The notes under the pieces are model-generated. The model worked only from the letters and a program-made list of their open reading frames with translations, was not told the DNA's origin and ran no database searches. This document shows positions 19,168-27,172 of a DNA stretch of 64,000 nt, in pieces. Location of the stretch: assembly GCA_046760505.1 (NCBI GenBank), contig JBHIEG010000002.1:1-64000 (forward strand), written 5' to 3'. Position numbers and translations under genes: made by a program. The stretch comes from Candidatus Hydrothermarchaeota archaeon (GTDB taxonomy: Archaea > CAYFZR01). Every line of letters begins with the position of its first letter. The stretch's first letter is position 1.

Positions 19168-20277
19168 CTATACAAATATGTAGTCCAGTCCGATTTCGTC
19201 CTTTAAGGGTTTTTTCTGGTAAAATGTTCCTGGTCCGAGTATTTGTGAGGAATGAACTCCTGTTATTATCACCACAACTCTTACACTACCTTCCATCTCT
19301 TTGGATATCCTTGCTCCCCAGATTACCTGTGCATGAGGATCCAGTTGATCTGTTATTAACTCTCCAATTCTATTAGCCTCTCCCAATGTGAGATCTGGTC
19401 CTCCAGTTATGTGAATCAATGCTCCAGTTGCCCCTCTGTAGTCTATATCTAAGAGCGGACTGTGTAAAGCTTTTTCAACAACATCTTCTACTCTCTGCTG
19501 GGAGTTTGATTCGCCTATTCCCATCATTGCAACGCCGCCATTTACCATGACTGCCTTTACATCCGCATAGTCCAGATTAATTAGGCTTGGTATTGTAATC
19601 GTTTCGGCGATTCCTTTCACACTCTGGGCTATAATTTCATCTGCAACGCTAAATGCCTGTTCGATGGGTAGATGAGGTACGAACTGAACCAATCTGTTGT
19701 TATCTAAAACGATAACTGTGTCGCATGCTTCCCTTAACCTTTCTAATCCTTCCATAGCCTTGCTTATCCTTGCCTTTTCCATGTAAAAAGGTGTTGTTAC
19801 TATGGCTATTACGACCGCTCCCTGCTCTTTCGCATTTTCGGCGATTATTGGAGCGGATCCGGTTCCTGTGCCTCCACCCATTCCAGCAGTGATGAAAACC
19901 AGATCTGCACCATCAAAAAGTTTTTGGAAAACTTGTTTTGCTTGTTCCGCTGCTTTTCTCCCTATTTCAGGATAGCCACCAGCGCCAAGTCCTTTTGTCA
20001 AATTTTTTCCGATTAATATTTTCTTCGCTGACCTCACTATGTCTAGGTGCTGTTTGTCTGTGTTCACAGCTACCGTCTCTGCTCCGAGTATGCCTATGTT
20101 GTGAAGACGATTCACTGTGTTATTACCTCCGCCTCCGGTGCCAACTACCAGTATTCTGGCGTTTCCAAATTCCTCGCCTCTCTTTCTATTCAAGCTAAAT
20201 CTACTAAAATGGTCTCTTCTTATTTGTTCTTCCCTTTCAGCATTGATAAGAGCACTTTTTATTATCGAGTCCATCAA
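19168..20277 (-). CDS. ftsZ: Cell division protein FtsZ (FtsZ2-type context)
   Basis: [34 protein letters not shown]; directly downstream of cdrS. Confidence 0.97.
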
Positions 20278-20714: not shown

Positions 20715-21173
20715 GTGTGTACAGTGAAAAAGAAGGTGATAATTGAAATTGAGGAATCCCCCGGAGAAAAAGAAACGATAACAATCCAAGGAGATAATCT
20801 CTGGGGTAAGTTGCTAAAATATAAGCACTTATTAGTAGATACGCCAGAACAATTAGACTTTTCTGATGATTTAAAATCTGAAGGTTATGATTTAACAAGT
20901 ATAGATAAACCGTACTGGCTTCCCAGCGAAAAAAAACTTAAAAACATGAGTAGAAAAGAAAAACTCTTCTTATTACTGAGAGAAATGCATCCAAACGAAT
21001 GGGTCAAATCTCAACAACTCAAGCGGGAGTATATTAACATATTCGAAGAGGACCTCCCGCTGAGCTCGGTGTCCACATATCTAGCAAGGCTACACAAAGA
21101 TGGATTCGTTGAAAGGAGAGGTTCAAGAGCCCAAAGAGAGTATCGATTGGTCAGTGAAGCTATTTCGCCATAA
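20715..21173 (+). CDS. Winged-helix DNA-binding protein
   Basis: C-terminal WVKSQQLKREY...LSSVSTYLARLHKDGFVERRG...EYRL. Confidence 0.75.
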   Translation: MCTVKKKVIIEIEESPGEKETITIQGDNLWGKLLKYKHLLVDTPEQLDFSDDLKSEGYDLTSIDKPYWLPSEKKLKNMSRKEKLFLLLREMHPNEWVKSQQLKREYINIFEEDLPLSSVSTYLARLHKDGFVERRGSRAQREYRLVSEAISP

Positions 21174-21935: not shown

Positions 21936-24900
21936 ATGATCATGAAAAGCGTAATTATTAAGTTAACCGTTGGATTCATAATAATTACTATTCTCTCAGG
22001 AGTTATCGCCTACAACTTAGATGATCTGTACCTCATCAATAAAGGAAATGCAATCATTTATTTTCCTGATAATTTGTTTAGCGGTACTCAAACGTCTCTA
22101 CTGATACAAACAACCGATGTGGAAGGATTTCCAAAGGAGAACGAGCATGTCAGTGTCTTGTTAATTACCAAAAATAAAACGTATCACCTCTTTGAGGGTA
22201 ACACAGATGAGAGCGGATCTGCTCAGGCAATTATAAACGTTCCTGATTTTACTGGAGAGGCGACTTTGTTAATTCATGCAGCAGGAACAGAGATTGAAAG
22301 GAGAATCGAGGTCAAAGAGACTTATAGAATACTCATCTCAACCGACAAGCCAATATATCAGCCCGGTCAGATAGTTCATATAAGAATTCTAAGTTTTCAA
22401 GGCATTGAGCCAAAGGCTTCTAATAAAGAAGTTAAATTGGAGATAAACGATCCTAATGGTAATATCATTTACAGAAAGGTGCTAATCCCAAACGAATATG
22501 GTATAGCGAGCGTTGATTTTTCCCTCTCAGAACAACTTCCGCTTGGAAACTACAAGATTGAGGCAGAAGTTGGAGGAAAAAAGGTAGAAAAAACAGTCAT
22601 TGTGAAAAAATATGTCCTTCCTAAGTTTAGCATAAATTTTGAAGGTTTAAAATCTTGGTATCTAGTAAACGAGAGGATAAAAGGGAAAATAATCTGCAAT
22701 TACTTCTTTGGAAAAGAAGTAGAGGGGAATGTAAACATAAGCGTCAAAGCATACTACGGCATTTGGAAAGAAGTAAGTCGGGCATCTGGTAGATTGGAGG
22801 ATGGAGAATTTGATTTTAATTTTGATCCAGTTGGTTACGTTATAGGGATACCCTTTGAGAAAGGTAGCGGATTAATAAGATTAGATGTTGGAGTGACGGA
22901 TGAAGGAGGTCACAAAGAGAAAAAATCTATTTCCTTGCCTATATCTGGTAAACCAATTCTTCTAACGCTCATCACAGATAAAAATGTCTTGAATACCAGA
23001 TCTATCTATTACATAATCGCAAAATATCCTGACGGCTCTCCGGTAAGGGATGCTGACGTTAAGATATCGATCGGTAATGATGAGAACTACTTTACTAGAA
23101 CAGACGATAGAGGTATAGCCAAATTTGAATTTATATTTCATGGAGAAGATTCCATAAACATAAGTGCAGTTAAGGATAATTATTCTATCAGGGAAACTTT
23201 TTCTCTGCATTCTTCTGATGGTTTGAAGATAATTCCTGAAAAAACAACCTACAACATAGGAGAAAGAGCCAAATTCGATGTTATCTACAAAGGCGACTCG
23301 CTTACAGACTGGGTATTCTACGATATAGCATCTAAGGGTTTCATCGTTACAACTGGCAAACTCAAACTTGAGGATGGAAGAGGCAATTTCTCCGTTACTG
23401 TTTCCCCTGACATGATTCCCCTAGCAAAGGTAAGAGTATACAAAACCCAACAAGACCTAAAAGTTGTAAAGGATACCGCAGTAATTGGAATAACTTCTCC
23501 GAACAAATTGGAGGTGGAAATAACCAAAGATAAAGATCAGTACTTACCGCATGAACCCATTACCCTGCACTTCAAAATCAAAGACAAAGATAAGCCTGTT
23601 GTATCGGCTTTAGGAATTTCTATAGTTGATAAATCTGTTTTTGAAATAAGTGAACGGTTCTATGGAATAGAAAAATTGTACTTTGCTTTGGAAGAGGATT
23701 TCATAAAACCCCAGTACGAAATTCACGAGTATGTATTTTCGAACTCACGTATACTCACTCCTGCTAGAAATGTTCCAAAAGAAGTTCAAATAGGCGATTT
23801 TGGATCTGAAACCAGTATAATAAAGACTTGGCAGAGGGACATTGAACGCGCGAGTATTTTAAGAGAATATGCGATTAAGAAATTTTGGCAGGGTCTTGCC
23901 TTCTCTTCGATATTTTTATTCTTAGTCTCTTTTGCTATCGCCGATTACAGAGTGCTTAAAAAATACGGAAAGACTCCTGCTCTCGTGATCTTTTTGGTAT
24001 TTGTTGTTCTTCTATCCATTGCTACCTCAATTTCAACTTATTTGTTAATGCCGATATCTTGTCCACCACCTGTAGTGGTAGAAAAAGGAATGGTAATGGA
24101 TATGCAAAGAGCTCCTGGAATTGCTATTCGGAGTGAGATGGTTAAAACTTCAATGGAAAGGGCAATGAAGAAAGAAGAAAAAAGTATTGGAGAAGAAGAA
24201 TATGCAAGACAATTTTTCCCTGAGACGTGGTACTGGGAACCCGTATTGATCACCGACGAAAAAGGAGAAGCCAGCATATCTTTGATAACCCCGGATTCCA
24301 TAACTTCTTGGGAAGTCTCCTTAATTGCATCCACAAAGGATGCGAGGTTTGGAACAGGCAATCAAGAGATAACCGTTTTCAAGGAGTTCTTTATTGAGCC
24401 AGATATACCCTCCTCCGCAATAAGAGGGGAAAAATTCCCGCTGGGAGTAATGATATACAACTACGATAAAAAAGATCATGAAATTAATGTAAAAATAATG
24501 AAATCAGATTGGTTTGAACTCCTATCCAATCCTGAAAAAATTATTAACGTGAAATCTAAGAGCGTATCCAGAGTTGAATTTAATATTATACCCAGATCGG
24601 TGGGAAAACATAATTTAACTATTTACGCATTTTCTGATGCTAAAAAAGATGCCATAATTAAAGAAATGAGAATAGAACCTGATGGAAAAGCTCTTACAGA
24701 TATAAAAAATGGTGAGTTAAAAAACGAGCAAACTGTAATGAAGAATTTAATTCTACTACCAAATAGAGTTCCTGAGAGTGAGGATGCATTTGTAAAGATT
24801 CAAGGAGGAATGGAATCAGTTATATTGGATGGAGCTGAAGGTTTCATGCACTTTGTATCTGGGTGTGGTGAGCAATCCTTATCAAGACTCTCCGTCGATA

Positions 24901-26336
24901 TTTTAGCATACCAGAATTTAATGAAGAAAAAGGGGATTACCGAAGAACAGATGTTCAAGTACGAGAATATGATTACCCAGGGAATCCAGCACGAATTGAT
25001 ATACCTCAAAGAAGGAAAAAAAGGAGGAAGAGGAATTGTATGGTTCCCGCACGATGAAGACGCACATCCTTGGCTTACTTCGTGGGGGCTCCTAACTTTT
25101 CAGGATGCTAGGAGCGCTGGATATACGATAGACGATAAAATTATAGAGGACATGCAGACTTTCCTCCTGAAACTTCAAAAGAATGACGGATCATTTGAAT
25201 TTCCTGAATGGGGGTTATACGAAACCACGAACCCTATTTTAAAAGCAAAGAAGGTGGCCACTACTTCATACATCATACATGCCTTAACGTACTCAGGATA
25301 CTCCTCAAAAAGTGAAGAAGTTAGGAGAGCAATCGACTTTATAGAGAAAAATATTAGAGATAACTGGGACGATCCCTACACACTGTCTCTAGCTTTAATC
25401 GTTTTGGAAGATGCAAACGGTGATAAAAAATTAAGAGATGAGATTGCTGACAGATTAATCGAGCTTAAGGAAAAAGAAAACGGAACGTTCTACTGGACAT
25501 CCCGCATAAGCATGTACTCCAACGTAGAAGGAAGATTTAAATTCAACGAACGCACAATCGAGACGACTGGTTATGCAATAATGGCATTACAAAAGCACGG
25601 AGACATCGAAATAGTAAGAAAAGCAATTGATTATCTTTTAACTCATAGAAACGCGATCGGTGGTTTCTTTACAACCCAAGACACAATTGTTGCATTCCAA
25701 GCTTTGAATAACTTCGGTTCTATTCCAATAAAAGACCTTACAATCAATGCATACATTAACGATCGCTTAATAAAGACAATACATCTAACAGAGGCTAACA
25801 AAGATCTCACCTATTTCATTGACCTCAGACCCTATCTGAAAGAAAAAAATCTCGTGGAATTAAAGAGCGAAGGAGAAGGGATTGCACTTTATCAAATATA
25901 CATGGAACAGTATCTCCCATGGAAAATTCTTGAATTTGAAAAGCCAAGTGAACTTCTGCTCAATGTAACATACGATGCCAAAAAGATAAGGGTAAACGAT
26001 ATCTTGAAGGCGCACTGCAAAATAAAATATCAGGGGAAAGCAGAGGAAATAAGAATGGTTTTGATTGATCTCAGAGCGCCGGTTGGTTTCTCATTTATAG
26101 AGGAAGACTTCAAATCTCTAGTCAATAGCGATACGATAGACAACTATGAAATAAAAGGTAGACAGGCTTTAGTTTACATAGAAGGTTTGAAAAGAGGAGA
26201 TACGGTTGAATTCGATTATAGATTGAGAGCAGAAAAGCCAATAAAGGGGGTAATTCAGGGAGTTAAGGCATTCGATATGTATAACATGAAGTCTAAGGCA
26301 GAGATGCCCCCAGTAGAGATTACATCTTTCGTTTGA
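21936..26336 (+). CDS. Alpha-2-macroglobulin family thioester protein
   Basis: STDKPIYQPGQ, YVLPKF, RQFFPETWYW, PDSITSW, GCGEQ thioester motif, WLTS, GGFFTTQDT; N-terminal signal/anchor. Confidence 0.93.
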   Translation: MIMKSVIIKLTVGFIIITILSGVIAYNLDDLYLINKGNAIIYFPDNLFSGTQTSLLIQTTDVEGFPKENEHVSVLLITKNKTYHLFEGNTDESGSAQAIINVPDFTGEATLLIHAAGTEIERRIEVKETYRILISTDKPIYQPGQIVHIRILSFQGIEPKASNKEVKLEINDPNGNIIYRKVLIPNEYGIASVDFSLSEQLPLGNYKIEAEVGGKKVEKTVIVKKYVLPKFSINFEGLKSWYLVNERIKGKIICNYFFGKEVEGNVNISVKAYYGIWKEVSRASGRLEDGEFDFNFDPVGYVIGIPFEKGSGLIRLDVGVTDEGGHKEKKSISLPISGKPILLTLITDKNVLNTRSIYYIIAKYPDGSPVRDADVKISIGNDENYFTRTDDRGIAKFEFIFHGEDSINISAVKDNYSIRETFSLHSSDGLKIIPEKTTYNIGERAKFDVIYKGDSLTDWVFYDIASKGFIVTTGKLKLEDGRGNFSVTVSPDMIPLAKVRVYKTQQDLKVVKDTAVIGITSPNKLEVEITKDKDQYLPHEPITLHFKIKDKDKPVVSALGISIVDKSVFEISERFYGIEKLYFALEEDFIKPQYEIHEYVFSNSRILTPARNVPKEVQIGDFGSETSIIKTWQRDIERASILREYAIKKFWQGLAFSSIFLFLVSFAIADYRVLKKYGKTPALVIFLVFVVLLSIATSISTYLLMPISCPPPVVVEKGMVMDMQRAPGIAIRSEMVKTSMERAMKKEEKSIGEEEYARQFFPETWYWEPVLITDEKGEASISLITPDSITSWEVSLIASTKDARFGTGNQEITVFKEFFIEPDIPSSAIRGEKFPLGVMIYNYDKKDHEINVKIMKSDWFELLSNPEKIINVKSKSVSRVEFNIIPRSVGKHNLTIYAFSDAKKDAIIKEMRIEPDGKALTDIKNGELKNEQTVMKNLILLPNRVPESEDAFVKIQGGMESVILDGAEGFMHFVSGCGEQSLSRLSVDILAYQNLMKKKGITEEQMFKYENMITQGIQHELIYLKEGKKGGRGIVWFPHDEDAHPWLTSWGLLTFQDARSAGYTIDDKIIEDMQTFLLKLQKNDGSFEFPEWGLYETTNPILKAKKVATTSYIIHALTYSGYSSKSEEVRRAIDFIEKNIRDNWDDPYTLSLALIVLEDANGDKKLRDEIADRLIELKEKENGTFYWTSRISMYSNVEGRFKFNERTIETTGYAIMALQKHGDIEIVRKAIDYLLTHRNAIGGFFTTQDTIVAFQALNNFGSIPIKDLTINAYINDRLIKTIHLTEANKDLTYFIDLRPYLKEKNLVELKSEGEGIALYQIYMEQYLPWKILEFEKPSELLLNVTYDAKKIRVNDILKAHCKIKYQGKAEEIRMVLIDLRAPVGFSFIEEDFKSLVNSDTIDNYEIKGRQALVYIEGLKRGDTVEFDYRLRAEKPIKGVIQGVKAFDMYNMKSKAEMPPVEITSFV

Positions 26337-26392: not shown

Positions 26393-26466
26393 GGGCCCGT
26401 GGTCTAGTTGGTTATGACGCTGCCCTTACAAGGCAGAGATCGGGCGTTCGAATCGCCCCGGGCCCA
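26393..26466 (+). tRNA. tRNA-Val(TAC)
   Basis: GGGCCCG...CTGCC-CTTACAA-GGCAG...TTCGAAT...CGGGCCC-A. Confidence 0.96.
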
Positions 26467-26473
26467 TTCTCGC

Positions 26474-27172
26474 ATGAGGAGGAGTTCTTTGTATCAAAGA
26501 AAGATAGGCAGAAACGATCCATGCCCTTGTGGCAGTGGAGAAAAATATAAAAAATGCTGTTTATCTCAGCATTTGAGAATAATAAGAACAGTTCCTGTAT
26601 TGAAGTCTATGATCGATGAATTTTCTGATTTGAGGAGATTTAAACAGGATATAAAAGAGTGCGTCTCTTTGTTCCTAACAGATATTGATATCCCAGATGA
26701 GTTCATCCAAGTGAGAGTTCATGACTGGTTCATCTTTAACTACACTCTCTCCTCTGGGAAAACTATTCTACAAACATTTAAAGAGGAAAAAGCAAACGAA
26801 CTCAGTAATGATGAACTAGAAATCCTTGAAGAATGGGAAAATACAATATTTGGTGTATTCCAGATAACAAAAGTAATTGAGAACAAAGGAGTTAATCTTA
26901 AAGATATATTCACGGGAAGAGAATATTTAGTTGAGGATTTAAGAGCCGCAAAGCCTGAATTAGAAAACAGTGTTTTGGTTACGAGAATAATGAAAGTTTT
27001 TGGCACCTCTTATTTTTCTGACTCTGTGATATTCTTCCCTGCCAACCTTAAGGAAAGATTATATGAGTTTGGCATTACCCAGTTTGAAAAATTTAGAAAG
27101 GATAAACCGGACTCTGAATGGGATGATTTCATCAAAGAAAGGGGATATGTCTTCAACCACTTTCGAAAATAA
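26474..27172 (+). CDS. SEC-C zinc-binding motif protein
   Basis: [19 protein letters not shown]; the ORF-track start lies inside the tRNA, so the real start is ATG 26474 or TTG 26489. Confidence 0.85.

Follow-up and report, generated by a model that had tools for sequence, protein, structure and literature searches.

An archaeal alpha-2-macroglobulin family protein with a predicted transmembrane hairpin in front of its bait

We analysed a stretch of 64,000 nucleotides (the window) at the start of contig JBHIEG010000002.1 from a Candidatus Hydrothermarchaeota archaeon (assembly GCA_046760505.1), and describe here its gene for a protein of the alpha-2-macroglobulin (A2M) family, P0001, which is single-copy in this genome (Table 1). 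The Pfam domains of P0001 are, from the N- to the C-terminus, MG4 (residues 57-121), MG2 (132-218), MG3 (225-281), A2M_BRD (430-570), A2M, TED_complement and A2M_recep, which is the canonical order of A2M, C3 and TEP proteins. No Pfam family matched residues 571-763, no NCBIfam family matched the protein at E ≤ 0.001, and its matches in the ESM Atlas were generic A2M clusters only. We made an AlphaFold2 (AF2) model of residues 1-1000 with 98 homologues as input (mean pLDDT 83.6, pTM 0.71), and its best Foldseek matches are CD109, C3, C5/CVF entries, C4b and A2ML1 (E = 9e-49 to 1e-44, probability 1.00). By phmmer searches against solved structures the nearest proteins are CD109 (E = 2.6e-68), A2ML1 and A2M, followed by C3/C4/C5 and insect TEP1, with 52 matches at E ≤ 1e-5. 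By its domain order, its CxEQ motif and the fold of residues 1-1000, P0001 is a member of the A2M/C3/TEP superfamily, as a first-pass annotation of the window had proposed on finding an intact GCGEQ motif.

A2M, CD109 and the complement proteins are soluble or lipid-tailed molecules, and their bait or ANA site is the trigger. The first-pass annotation had reported two strongly hydrophobic segments in P0001, and our measurements bear this out. We scored hydrophobicity by a position-independent Hessa-type sum in 19-residue windows, using as a comparison set the 1337 windows outside residues 1-30 and 630-710; none of these reaches the value of either internal helix, and the lowest value elsewhere is 10.24. 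The second internal helix is the stronger of the two (Hessa sum -2.62 at residues 682-700) and the first is weaker (1.38 at residues 650-668, with a Kyte-Doolittle (KD) hydropathy of 1.84). The only other hydrophobic segment of the protein is at its N-terminus (residues 6-26), and there are none after residue 704. In the AF2 model a single continuous helix (residues 631-677) spans both the first segment (TM1) and an amphipathic lead-in whose residue A639 is conserved in at least 90% of aligned family sequences. The string YRVLKKYGK, at residues 671-679, belongs to the loop between TM1 and the second segment (TM2). Taken together, both hydropathy scales, the statistics of charge and the helices modelled by AF2 suggest that the two internal segments form a transmembrane hairpin.

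Table 1. Features of the A2M-family gene and its product P0001, in order of position in the window.
Feature	Residues	Position	Strand	Basis
Whole A2M-family gene (1466 aa + stop, protein P0001)		21936..26336	+	ORF (open reading frame) list, translation, Pfam
N-terminal hydrophobic segment	6-26	21951..22013	+	KD 2.51, Hessa sum -0.48; AF2 helix 2-26, pLDDT 74-89
Outer half 1: MG-domain array to first half of MG6	~38-565	22047..23630	+	Pfam; AF2 all-beta, pLDDT mostly 85-97
LNK-like helical segment and variable stretch	566-630	23631..23825	+	AF2 helices 566-584, 592-601
Amphipathic helix entering TM1	631-649	23826..23882	+	AF2; A639 near-invariant
Predicted internal helix 1 (TM1), outside to inside, FWQGLAFSSIFLFLVSFAIA	650-669	23883..23942	+	Hydropathy; kept in 120/121 homologues
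Short basic loop, predicted cytoplasmic, DYRVLKKYGKTP	670-681	23943..23978	+	Family loop charge
Predicted internal helix 2 (TM2), inside to outside, ALVIFLVFVVLLSIATSISTYLL	682-704	23979..24047	+	KD 2.72, Hessa sum -2.62; AF2 helix 679-703
Disordered hypervariable bait-like linker	705-754	24048..24197	+	AF2 pLDDT <50 over 704-753
Plug/alpha'NT-like motif (R758-P762, then FPETWYW)	755-767	24198..24236	+	Alignment of 99 sequences
Pfam A2M domain (second half of MG6, and MG7)	764-853	24225..24494	+	PF00207, E 2.3e-26
Thioester domain (TED)	964-1259	24825..25712	+	PF07678, E 1.4e-38
GCGEQ thioester motif	976-980	24861..24875	+	Sequence
MG8/receptor-binding-type domain	1372-1455	26049..26300	+	PF07677, E 5.5e-7

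The hairpin lies between the A2M_BRD and A2M domains, in agreement with its earlier placement in the linker/bait region. In the phmmer alignment to CD109, residues 570-747 of the query stand unaligned opposite residues 619-697 of the chain; the last aligned query residue is 569 (chain 618) and the next is 748 (chain 698), so the insert takes the place of the bait region. The bait of CD109 is residues 694-725 in the numbering of its paper, which may be offset from that of the PDB chain (PMC12927315). No solved A2M-family protein aligned over the hairpin stretch by phmmer. Before the hairpin, and directly after the first half of MG6 (MG6a), there is a motif VD.SVFE...G.E.LYF.LEE.F..PQY.I that is common to relatives of a CFEQ type, described below, and to relatives without transmembrane segments.

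By a word-indexed search we found 166 relatives of P0001, of which we analysed the best 120 (34-99% identity), giving a family set of 121 proteins. Those with named sources come from metagenome-assembled genomes (MAGs) called Thermoplasmata, Methanomassiliicoccales, Thermoplasmatota, Methanobacteriota or Euryarchaeota archaeon. GCGEQ is present in all 121, and 120 have exactly two uncharged hydrophobic stretches, 17-36 residues long, between the conserved pre-helix and FPETW; the sole exception, P0082, has two stretches by eye, one containing Asn. The loop of the hairpin is short (median 5 residues, range 1-22) and basic, with a mean of 3.3 K+R versus 0.2 D+E and a net positive charge in 118 of 120 proteins, and in the 15 residues following TM2 the balance is reversed (0.96 K+R versus 3.3 D+E). 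Between TM2 and FPETW the linker is 64 residues long in the median (range 38-160), and Asp+Glu make up 20% of it. All 12 full-length genomic ORFs examined, drawn from the window, its sister species and a further ten genomes, contain the N-terminal segment as well as both internal ones. Averaged over sequence pairs, identity is 0.42-0.59 for the folded domains that we measured and 0.37 for the LNK-like segment, but drops to 0.28 and 0.20 for the helices of the hairpin and to 0.22 for the linker. Selection therefore acts here on hydrophobicity and charge pattern and not on sequence, in keeping with a membrane anchor of a generic kind and, after it, a variable region that resembles a bait. An independent protein with 99% identity (P0002) shows the same architecture, as do the ~78-79%-identical orthologue from the sister species (L001/L004) and 120 of the 121 family members, so the architecture is not an artefact of assembly or reading frame. 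This hairpin defines a large family of archaeal proteins.

The same conservation bears on whether the segments cross the membrane, or belong instead to a soluble bait-region domain, in which they would be buried or bind lipid. TM1 of P0001 is only marginally hydrophobic on both scales, as a soluble domain would allow, and transmembrane status is assigned here from hydropathy, charge and AF2 helices. Against a soluble domain stand the paired uncharged stretches of 120 of 121 proteins, with their short, basic connecting loop and acidic surroundings, and the two long helices that AF2 gives where no solved A2M aligns, and we consider it highly improbable.

At the N-terminus, all 106 homologues analysed have a hydrophobic segment, which we put at 17-21 residues; measured as an uncharged stretch it has a median of 19 residues (range 12-27), and it is preceded by an n-region with 3.6 K+R versus 0.8 D+E. 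The length of this segment and the frequent Val at position -1 in the homologues favour an uncleaved anchor, and residues 6-26 of P0001 are probably a signal-anchor with its N-terminus inside. The first-pass annotation had described a protein tethered from its middle; the hairpin agrees with this, but the N-terminal segment, which was missed, means that the hairpin is probably not the sole tether. The predicted order is thus N-terminus in, first half out, TM1 inward, loop in, TM2 outward, and linker and second half out, and it is consistent in that the positive-inside pattern holds at all three helices. The loop charge across the family likewise fits the earlier suggestion that the hairpin obeys the positive-inside rule with both halves outside.

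Since the hairpin adjoins the trigger, it might be thought to report bait cleavage on the outside to the cytoplasm, and signalling was one of the roles first suggested for it. Some CFEQ-type relatives with internal helices start with an anti-sigma-type zf-HC2 domain, although Pfam confirmed this for P0145 only; in P0153, P0171 and P0178 the domain was judged by the look of the N-terminus and is unconfirmed by Pfam. In the archaeal family, however, the cytoplasmic loop is too short for such a role and holds no domain, and the predicted cytoplasmic N-terminus of P0001 is 5 residues long. Nor did we find a conserved neighbouring regulator among 38 flanking ORFs that we scanned with Pfam at 13 loci (the window, L001 of the sister species and 11 from other genomes, with L047 left out). 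Signalling across the membrane is therefore a very remote prospect.

The linker that follows TM2 had been described as rich in Pro, Met, Arg and Lys. In residues 705-757 we count 8 Glu, 7 Met, 5 Pro, 5 Val, 5 Lys and 3 Arg, so the description is right for Met, Pro and Lys but not for Arg, and the richest residue is Glu. P0001 has the variable, exposed bait of the A2M superfamily, in the form of a disordered linker directly before an invariant plug, and the hairpin is additional to it. The plug contains the string RQFFPETWYW (residues 758-767, positions 24207-24236), in which R758, F761, P762, E763, T764, W765 and W767 are invariant among 99 aligned sequences. Its R758-P762 part has the same form as the plug of A2ML1, Arg730-Pro734 (PMC9156758), and the trigger of A2M-family proteins has been described as a plug in a channel (PMC9352918). 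P0001 has Cys residues at 254, 709, 977 and 1361 only. The thioester residue, Cys977, is the sole invariant Cys of the family (121 of 121), and hence there is no conserved disulfide between the halves. All the known parts of the trigger are recognizable in the sequence–an LNK-like segment, a flexible variable bait, an invariant plug and a thioester–and formation of the thioester is predicted.

The His of the 'VIHSEL' motif in CD109 is at the thioester-reactivity position. By the chemistry of C3 and C4, lack of His at this position favours direct reaction with amines, as in the protease-trapping A2Ms. The residue of P0001 aligned to this His is Tyr1095, and the family has Tyr in 99 proteins, Trp in 20, Leu in one and a gap in one. 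These residues speak to a role like that of complement or the TEPs, in which an activated TED would couple to a foreign surface (a virus, vesicle or cell) and tie the target to the archaeal membrane. The domain set of P0001 is common to C3 and the insect TEPs, both of which are among its matches. With Tyr or Trp in 119 of 121 proteins, though, the reactivity position is not His, which argues against the hydroxyl-directed chemistry of tagging carbohydrate surfaces, and Pfam found no match to the ANA and C345C domains. Immune-like roles of archaeal A2M homologues have been discussed (Makarova et al. 2021, PMC8416519), but we think tagging of this kind very unlikely for the present family. Separately, residues 1094-1095 are His-Trp in 20 of the 121 members and (Ile/Leu)-Tyr in the rest, and the His-Trp subset might have a different thioester chemistry.

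An exhaustive HMMER search with residues 420-1466 as query found 10,836 proteins at E ≤ 0.001, and the best 150 of these, which we studied, form two tiers. About 40 are representatives of the family with CGEQ and the hairpin. Those of the second tier lie on a plateau at about 30% identity and have the same Pfam architecture as P0001, with a thioester site that is GCFEQ in 104, CMEQ in two and CVEQ in one (n = 107). Between 1 and 8 hydrophobic segments, mostly 4-6, are present in the bait gap of 45 of these 107 CFEQ-type proteins, and there are none in the other 62. The inserts are flanked by the same motifs as in P0001, including the LNK-like flank, with a linker before R..FPET; one two-helix protein of this type is named as from a Chloroflexota bacterium. 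Other A2Ms with internal helices, for which the first-pass annotation had suggested a search, are therefore numerous, and since the hairpin is family-wide and CFEQ-type helices occupy the same gap, it is no oddity of a single gene.

The CFEQ-type proteins also hold some unusual domain combinations. P0145 (2080 amino acids) has its N-terminal zf-HC2 domain, then 6-7 hydrophobic segments in the bait gap, and a ring-forming YscJ/FliF domain (PF01514, E = 6.6e-37) with YscJ_FliF_C inserted before the A2M domain. P0148, which is helix-free, has a T2SSG pseudopilin-like domain in the bait gap (PF08334, 22.9 bits with a cut-off of 21). Such sequences suggest that the bait gap is generally a hot spot for insertions.

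We made a FastTree phylogeny from the C-terminal part of these proteins, excluding the insert (164 rows; two thirds of the word-search family set were left out, as were proteins without a located domain or full C-terminus). All 54 CGEQ-plus-hairpin proteins fall on one side of a branch with SH-like support of 99, and 106 CFEQ-type proteins on one side of another branch, also with support of 99. P0001, having GCGEQ and belonging to the former branch, is thus outside the GCFEQ clade, and has a membrane block (residues 650-704) at the same place between A2M_BRD and A2M; the CFEQ-type proteins differ from it in their motif, in having mostly 4-6 helices and, in some, in their zf-HC2 or YscJ/FliF domains. 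Each of the 54 rows has at least one internal hydrophobic segment. On the CFEQ side, multi-helix forms are on early branches and helix-free forms are nested within, and the pattern of presence and absence of helices over the tree needs at least five changes.

This distribution is relevant to the idea that the helices are a device for export only, serving as a stop-transfer and a second start-transfer sequence for Sec export of two halves of ~650-750 residues and having no part in the trap. Several features of the hairpin suit this idea: it keeps its hydrophobicity and not its sequence (pairwise identity 0.20-0.28), its loop is minimal, and the gap in which it lies tolerates other inserts in relatives (the T2SSG-like and YscJ/FliF domains). 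But export does not require the helices, because relatives of equal or greater size lack them, comprising 62 of the 107 CFEQ-type representatives and three CGEQ proteins. Moreover, the hairpin has never been lost in the archaeal clade, where 54 of 54 tree rows have at least one segment and 120 of 121 family proteins have two. We regard a role in export alone as quite unlikely.

A broader possibility is that a membrane block at the bait site is an old and widespread state of prokaryotic 'animal-type' A2Ms, in which a protease active at the membrane surface both arms the thioester and cuts the armed half loose. On this scenario the archaeal CGEQ clade would have two helices, and the CFEQ clade would have started out with 4-8, some of its members losing them later. 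The tree does not distinguish gain from loss, because it has no outgroup, its supports are those of FastTree and it covers the nearest 150 relatives only, and we hold the scenario to be doubtful. If true, it would describe a two-chain-like membrane machine, with a beta-like half pinned at both ends and an alpha-like half held by the bait alone, and CD109-like shedding would have arisen independently of GPI (glycosylphosphatidylinositol) anchors.

Among known systems, human CD109 (PDB 8s3o, 9fx2, 9fx3) is both the best sequence match to P0001 among solved structures and its top fold match, although identity is only ~18% over the aligned structure. Both are membrane-bound, monomer-type traps (P0001 by prediction) with a thioester, a bait directly before R..FPETW, and an MG8 domain. 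They differ in the reactivity residue, which is His in CD109 and Tyr in P0001, and in their anchors: CD109 has a C-terminal GPI anchor on an MG8 domain separated by furin, whereas P0001 has the predicted N-terminal helix and bait hairpin and no C-terminal hydrophobic tail. There is no GPI signal like that of CD109, the protein ending 11 residues past its A2M_recep match.

The bacterial A2Ms of the ECAM/YfhM type are held by a lipoprotein anchor. P0001 has no such lipobox, its first Cys being residue 254, and it has no match at E ≤ 0.1 to the bacterial Pfam domains bMG3, bMG5, bMG6 and bMG10. ECAM of E. coli was not among the phmmer matches at E ≤ 1e-5 and ranked 50th by Foldseek. A pbpC-type peptidoglycan synthase gene was not found beside the A2M gene in the Pfam-scanned flanks of the window or the 12 other loci. 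What P0001 is predicted to share with the ECAM/YfhM and Salmonella type (PDB 5a42 and others) is the form of a prokaryotic thioester trap that is fixed to the membrane and faces outward; the bacterial proteins are monomeric thioester traps on the cytoplasmic membrane, facing out, and are presumed to guard the envelope against proteases (PMC4498604). In C3, the cut between beta and alpha chains and the ANA insertion lie between LNK and alpha'NT (PMC9352918). P0001 resembles C3/C4/C5 in having an insert at this boundary, followed by R..FPE(T/S)W, but C3 is secreted and has a soluble four-helix ANA there, and P0001 a membrane hairpin and disordered linker.

Archaeal A2M homologues have been described before. 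Makarova et al. (2021) listed 27 in 24 genomes, mainly of Halobacteria and Methanomicrobia and 'typically' with a signal peptide, and these resemble P0001 in their Ig/MG domains, TED and CxEQ motif (PMC8416519). The main text of that paper does not contain 'Thermoplasmat' or 'bait', its passages on these homologues do not mention internal membrane helices, and a 2026 review of A2M does not contain 'archaea', 'transmembrane' or 'prokaryot' (PMC12939704). By full-text search, with subscription journals outside its scope, we found no paper on membrane helices inside an A2M-family protein. Archaeal homologues with TED and CxEQ are thus already published, and we found no account of a two-helix, CGEQ-type hairpin at the bait site.

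From these observations we somewhat favour, at slightly better than an even chance, the view that P0001 acts at the cell surface as a snap-trap for proteases, of the same kind as A2M and CD109, and that its chain passes through the membrane three times. By analogy with A2ML1 and CD109 (PMC12927315, PMC9156758), the trap would be covalent and of the monomer type. The N-terminal signal-anchor would export the first half (MG1 to MG6a and the LNK-like helices), TM1 would bring the chain back into the membrane, leaving a basic loop of ~5-12 residues in the cytoplasm, and TM2 would re-export it as a flexible bait of ~50 residues leading to the R..FPETWYW plug. The second half, consisting of MG6b, MG7, CUB, the thioester domain and MG8, would follow on the outside. 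As the bait would emerge directly from the bilayer, we propose that it is cut by endoproteases acting at the surface of the archaeal membrane. A cut would create a discontinuity that lets the plug retract, as in A2M and A2ML1, and the exposed thioester would couple covalently to the protease. Cleavage would also remove the only covalent tie between the thioester-bearing fragment and the membrane. That fragment would probably stay on the N-terminal fragment, itself anchored twice, by non-covalent contacts within the composite MG6 domain, and this would keep the captured protease on the cell. Bait cleavage may plausibly be coupled in this way to release or retention at the membrane, and of the two we prefer retention.

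Release would make P0001 a shedding decoy like CD109, from which the C-terminal fragment and its bound protease depart and the N-terminal fragment stays in the membrane. Once cut, the C-terminal half would have no anchor of its own, all three hydrophobic segments being N-terminal to the bait, and no conserved disulfide joins the halves. On the other hand, nothing in the sequence indicates a weak interface. The MG6 domain of A2M-family proteins is built of strands from both halves, and neither C3 nor cleaved A2M falls apart into its chains, which counts against shedding. CD109 does leave the cell surface upon bait cleavage, but its release needs a furin cut before MG8, where its GPI anchor is (PMC12927315); bait cleavage is thereby tied to membrane fate, as we propose for P0001. 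On balance we think shedding unlikely.

Some observations weigh against a three-pass surface trap. P0001 has a V-x-A pattern (V-I-A) before Tyr27, which points to possible cleavage at the N-terminus; loss of the N-terminal helix in this way would leave the hairpin as sole anchor. At the 13 scanned loci there is no conserved neighbour beyond the genus that could be a protease, repair enzyme or partner; the sole recurrence outside the genus is a Beta_propel protein, beside two of the 13. The family is also patchy. In the phylum of a Thermoplasmata MAG (G002), only 30 of 401 sampled genomes have a match at E ≤ 1e-10. Matches in 21 of these are strong (E < 1e-150) and of the hairpin type, and nine are weak: eight of the nine genomes have frames of 1700-2560 residues, a different and longer kind of A2M, and in the ninth (G066) the match is to the N-terminal half, within a 1410-residue frame. 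G002 itself (locus L002, 'uncultured Thermoplasmata archaeon') has two hairpin-type paralogues and one protein of another kind.

The GTDB phylum of the window's own genome consists of two genomes of one genus in the species-representative set, and both encode the A2M gene. The A2M protein of the window nests among those of Thermoplasmata-named MAGs, though its genome is in a separate GTDB phylum. One further locus, on a 3.6-Mb contig of genome G148, has a 683-residue ORF with GCGEQ (L044:9904-11952, + strand) that matches the C-terminal half only; it is without FPETW and hairpin, has no N-terminal half nearby, and may be a truncated or remodelled copy. As to whether some genomes split the gene into a tail-anchored N-terminal half and a signal-anchored C-terminal half, the short matches stem from contigs of 3-5 kb, and two half-length frames in genomes of the Thermoplasmata phylum stop at contig ends.

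In the window, the neighbours of the A2M gene are an unassigned 152-residue protein upstream (20715-21173), a SEC-C-motif protein, a phosphoesterase and an AI-2E transporter. The SEC-C-motif gene, downstream at 26408-27172 (+ strand), encodes 254 residues with the metal-binding motif at the N-terminus; it is present in the sister species too (L001:12635-13315) and was not found beside the A2M gene in the more distant genomes scanned. In the sister species a gene for an HtrA-like trypsin-PDZ protease (L001:6482-7420, - strand) is directly upstream of the A2M orthologue, and in the window this place is held by the 152-residue ORF, with no HtrA-like gene. An FtsZ-family gene (Tubulin and FtsZ_C domains; 19168-20277, - strand) lies ~1.7 kb upstream on the opposite strand. 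An antisense ORF of 107 residues (24038-24361, - strand), wholly within the A2M gene and opposite the bait linker and MG6b, is most likely a chance frame.

If P0001 is the three-pass trap that we favour, a hairpin placed before the trigger, with one end of the bait fixed in the bilayer, would be a natural test case for how bait discontinuity and plug retraction work. Because the closest solved relatives of P0001 are animal proteins and not the bacterial A2Ms that have been studied, the family is also relevant to the origin of the animal A2M and complement proteins. It suggests, too, how organisms without an outer membrane may defend their surface against proteases.

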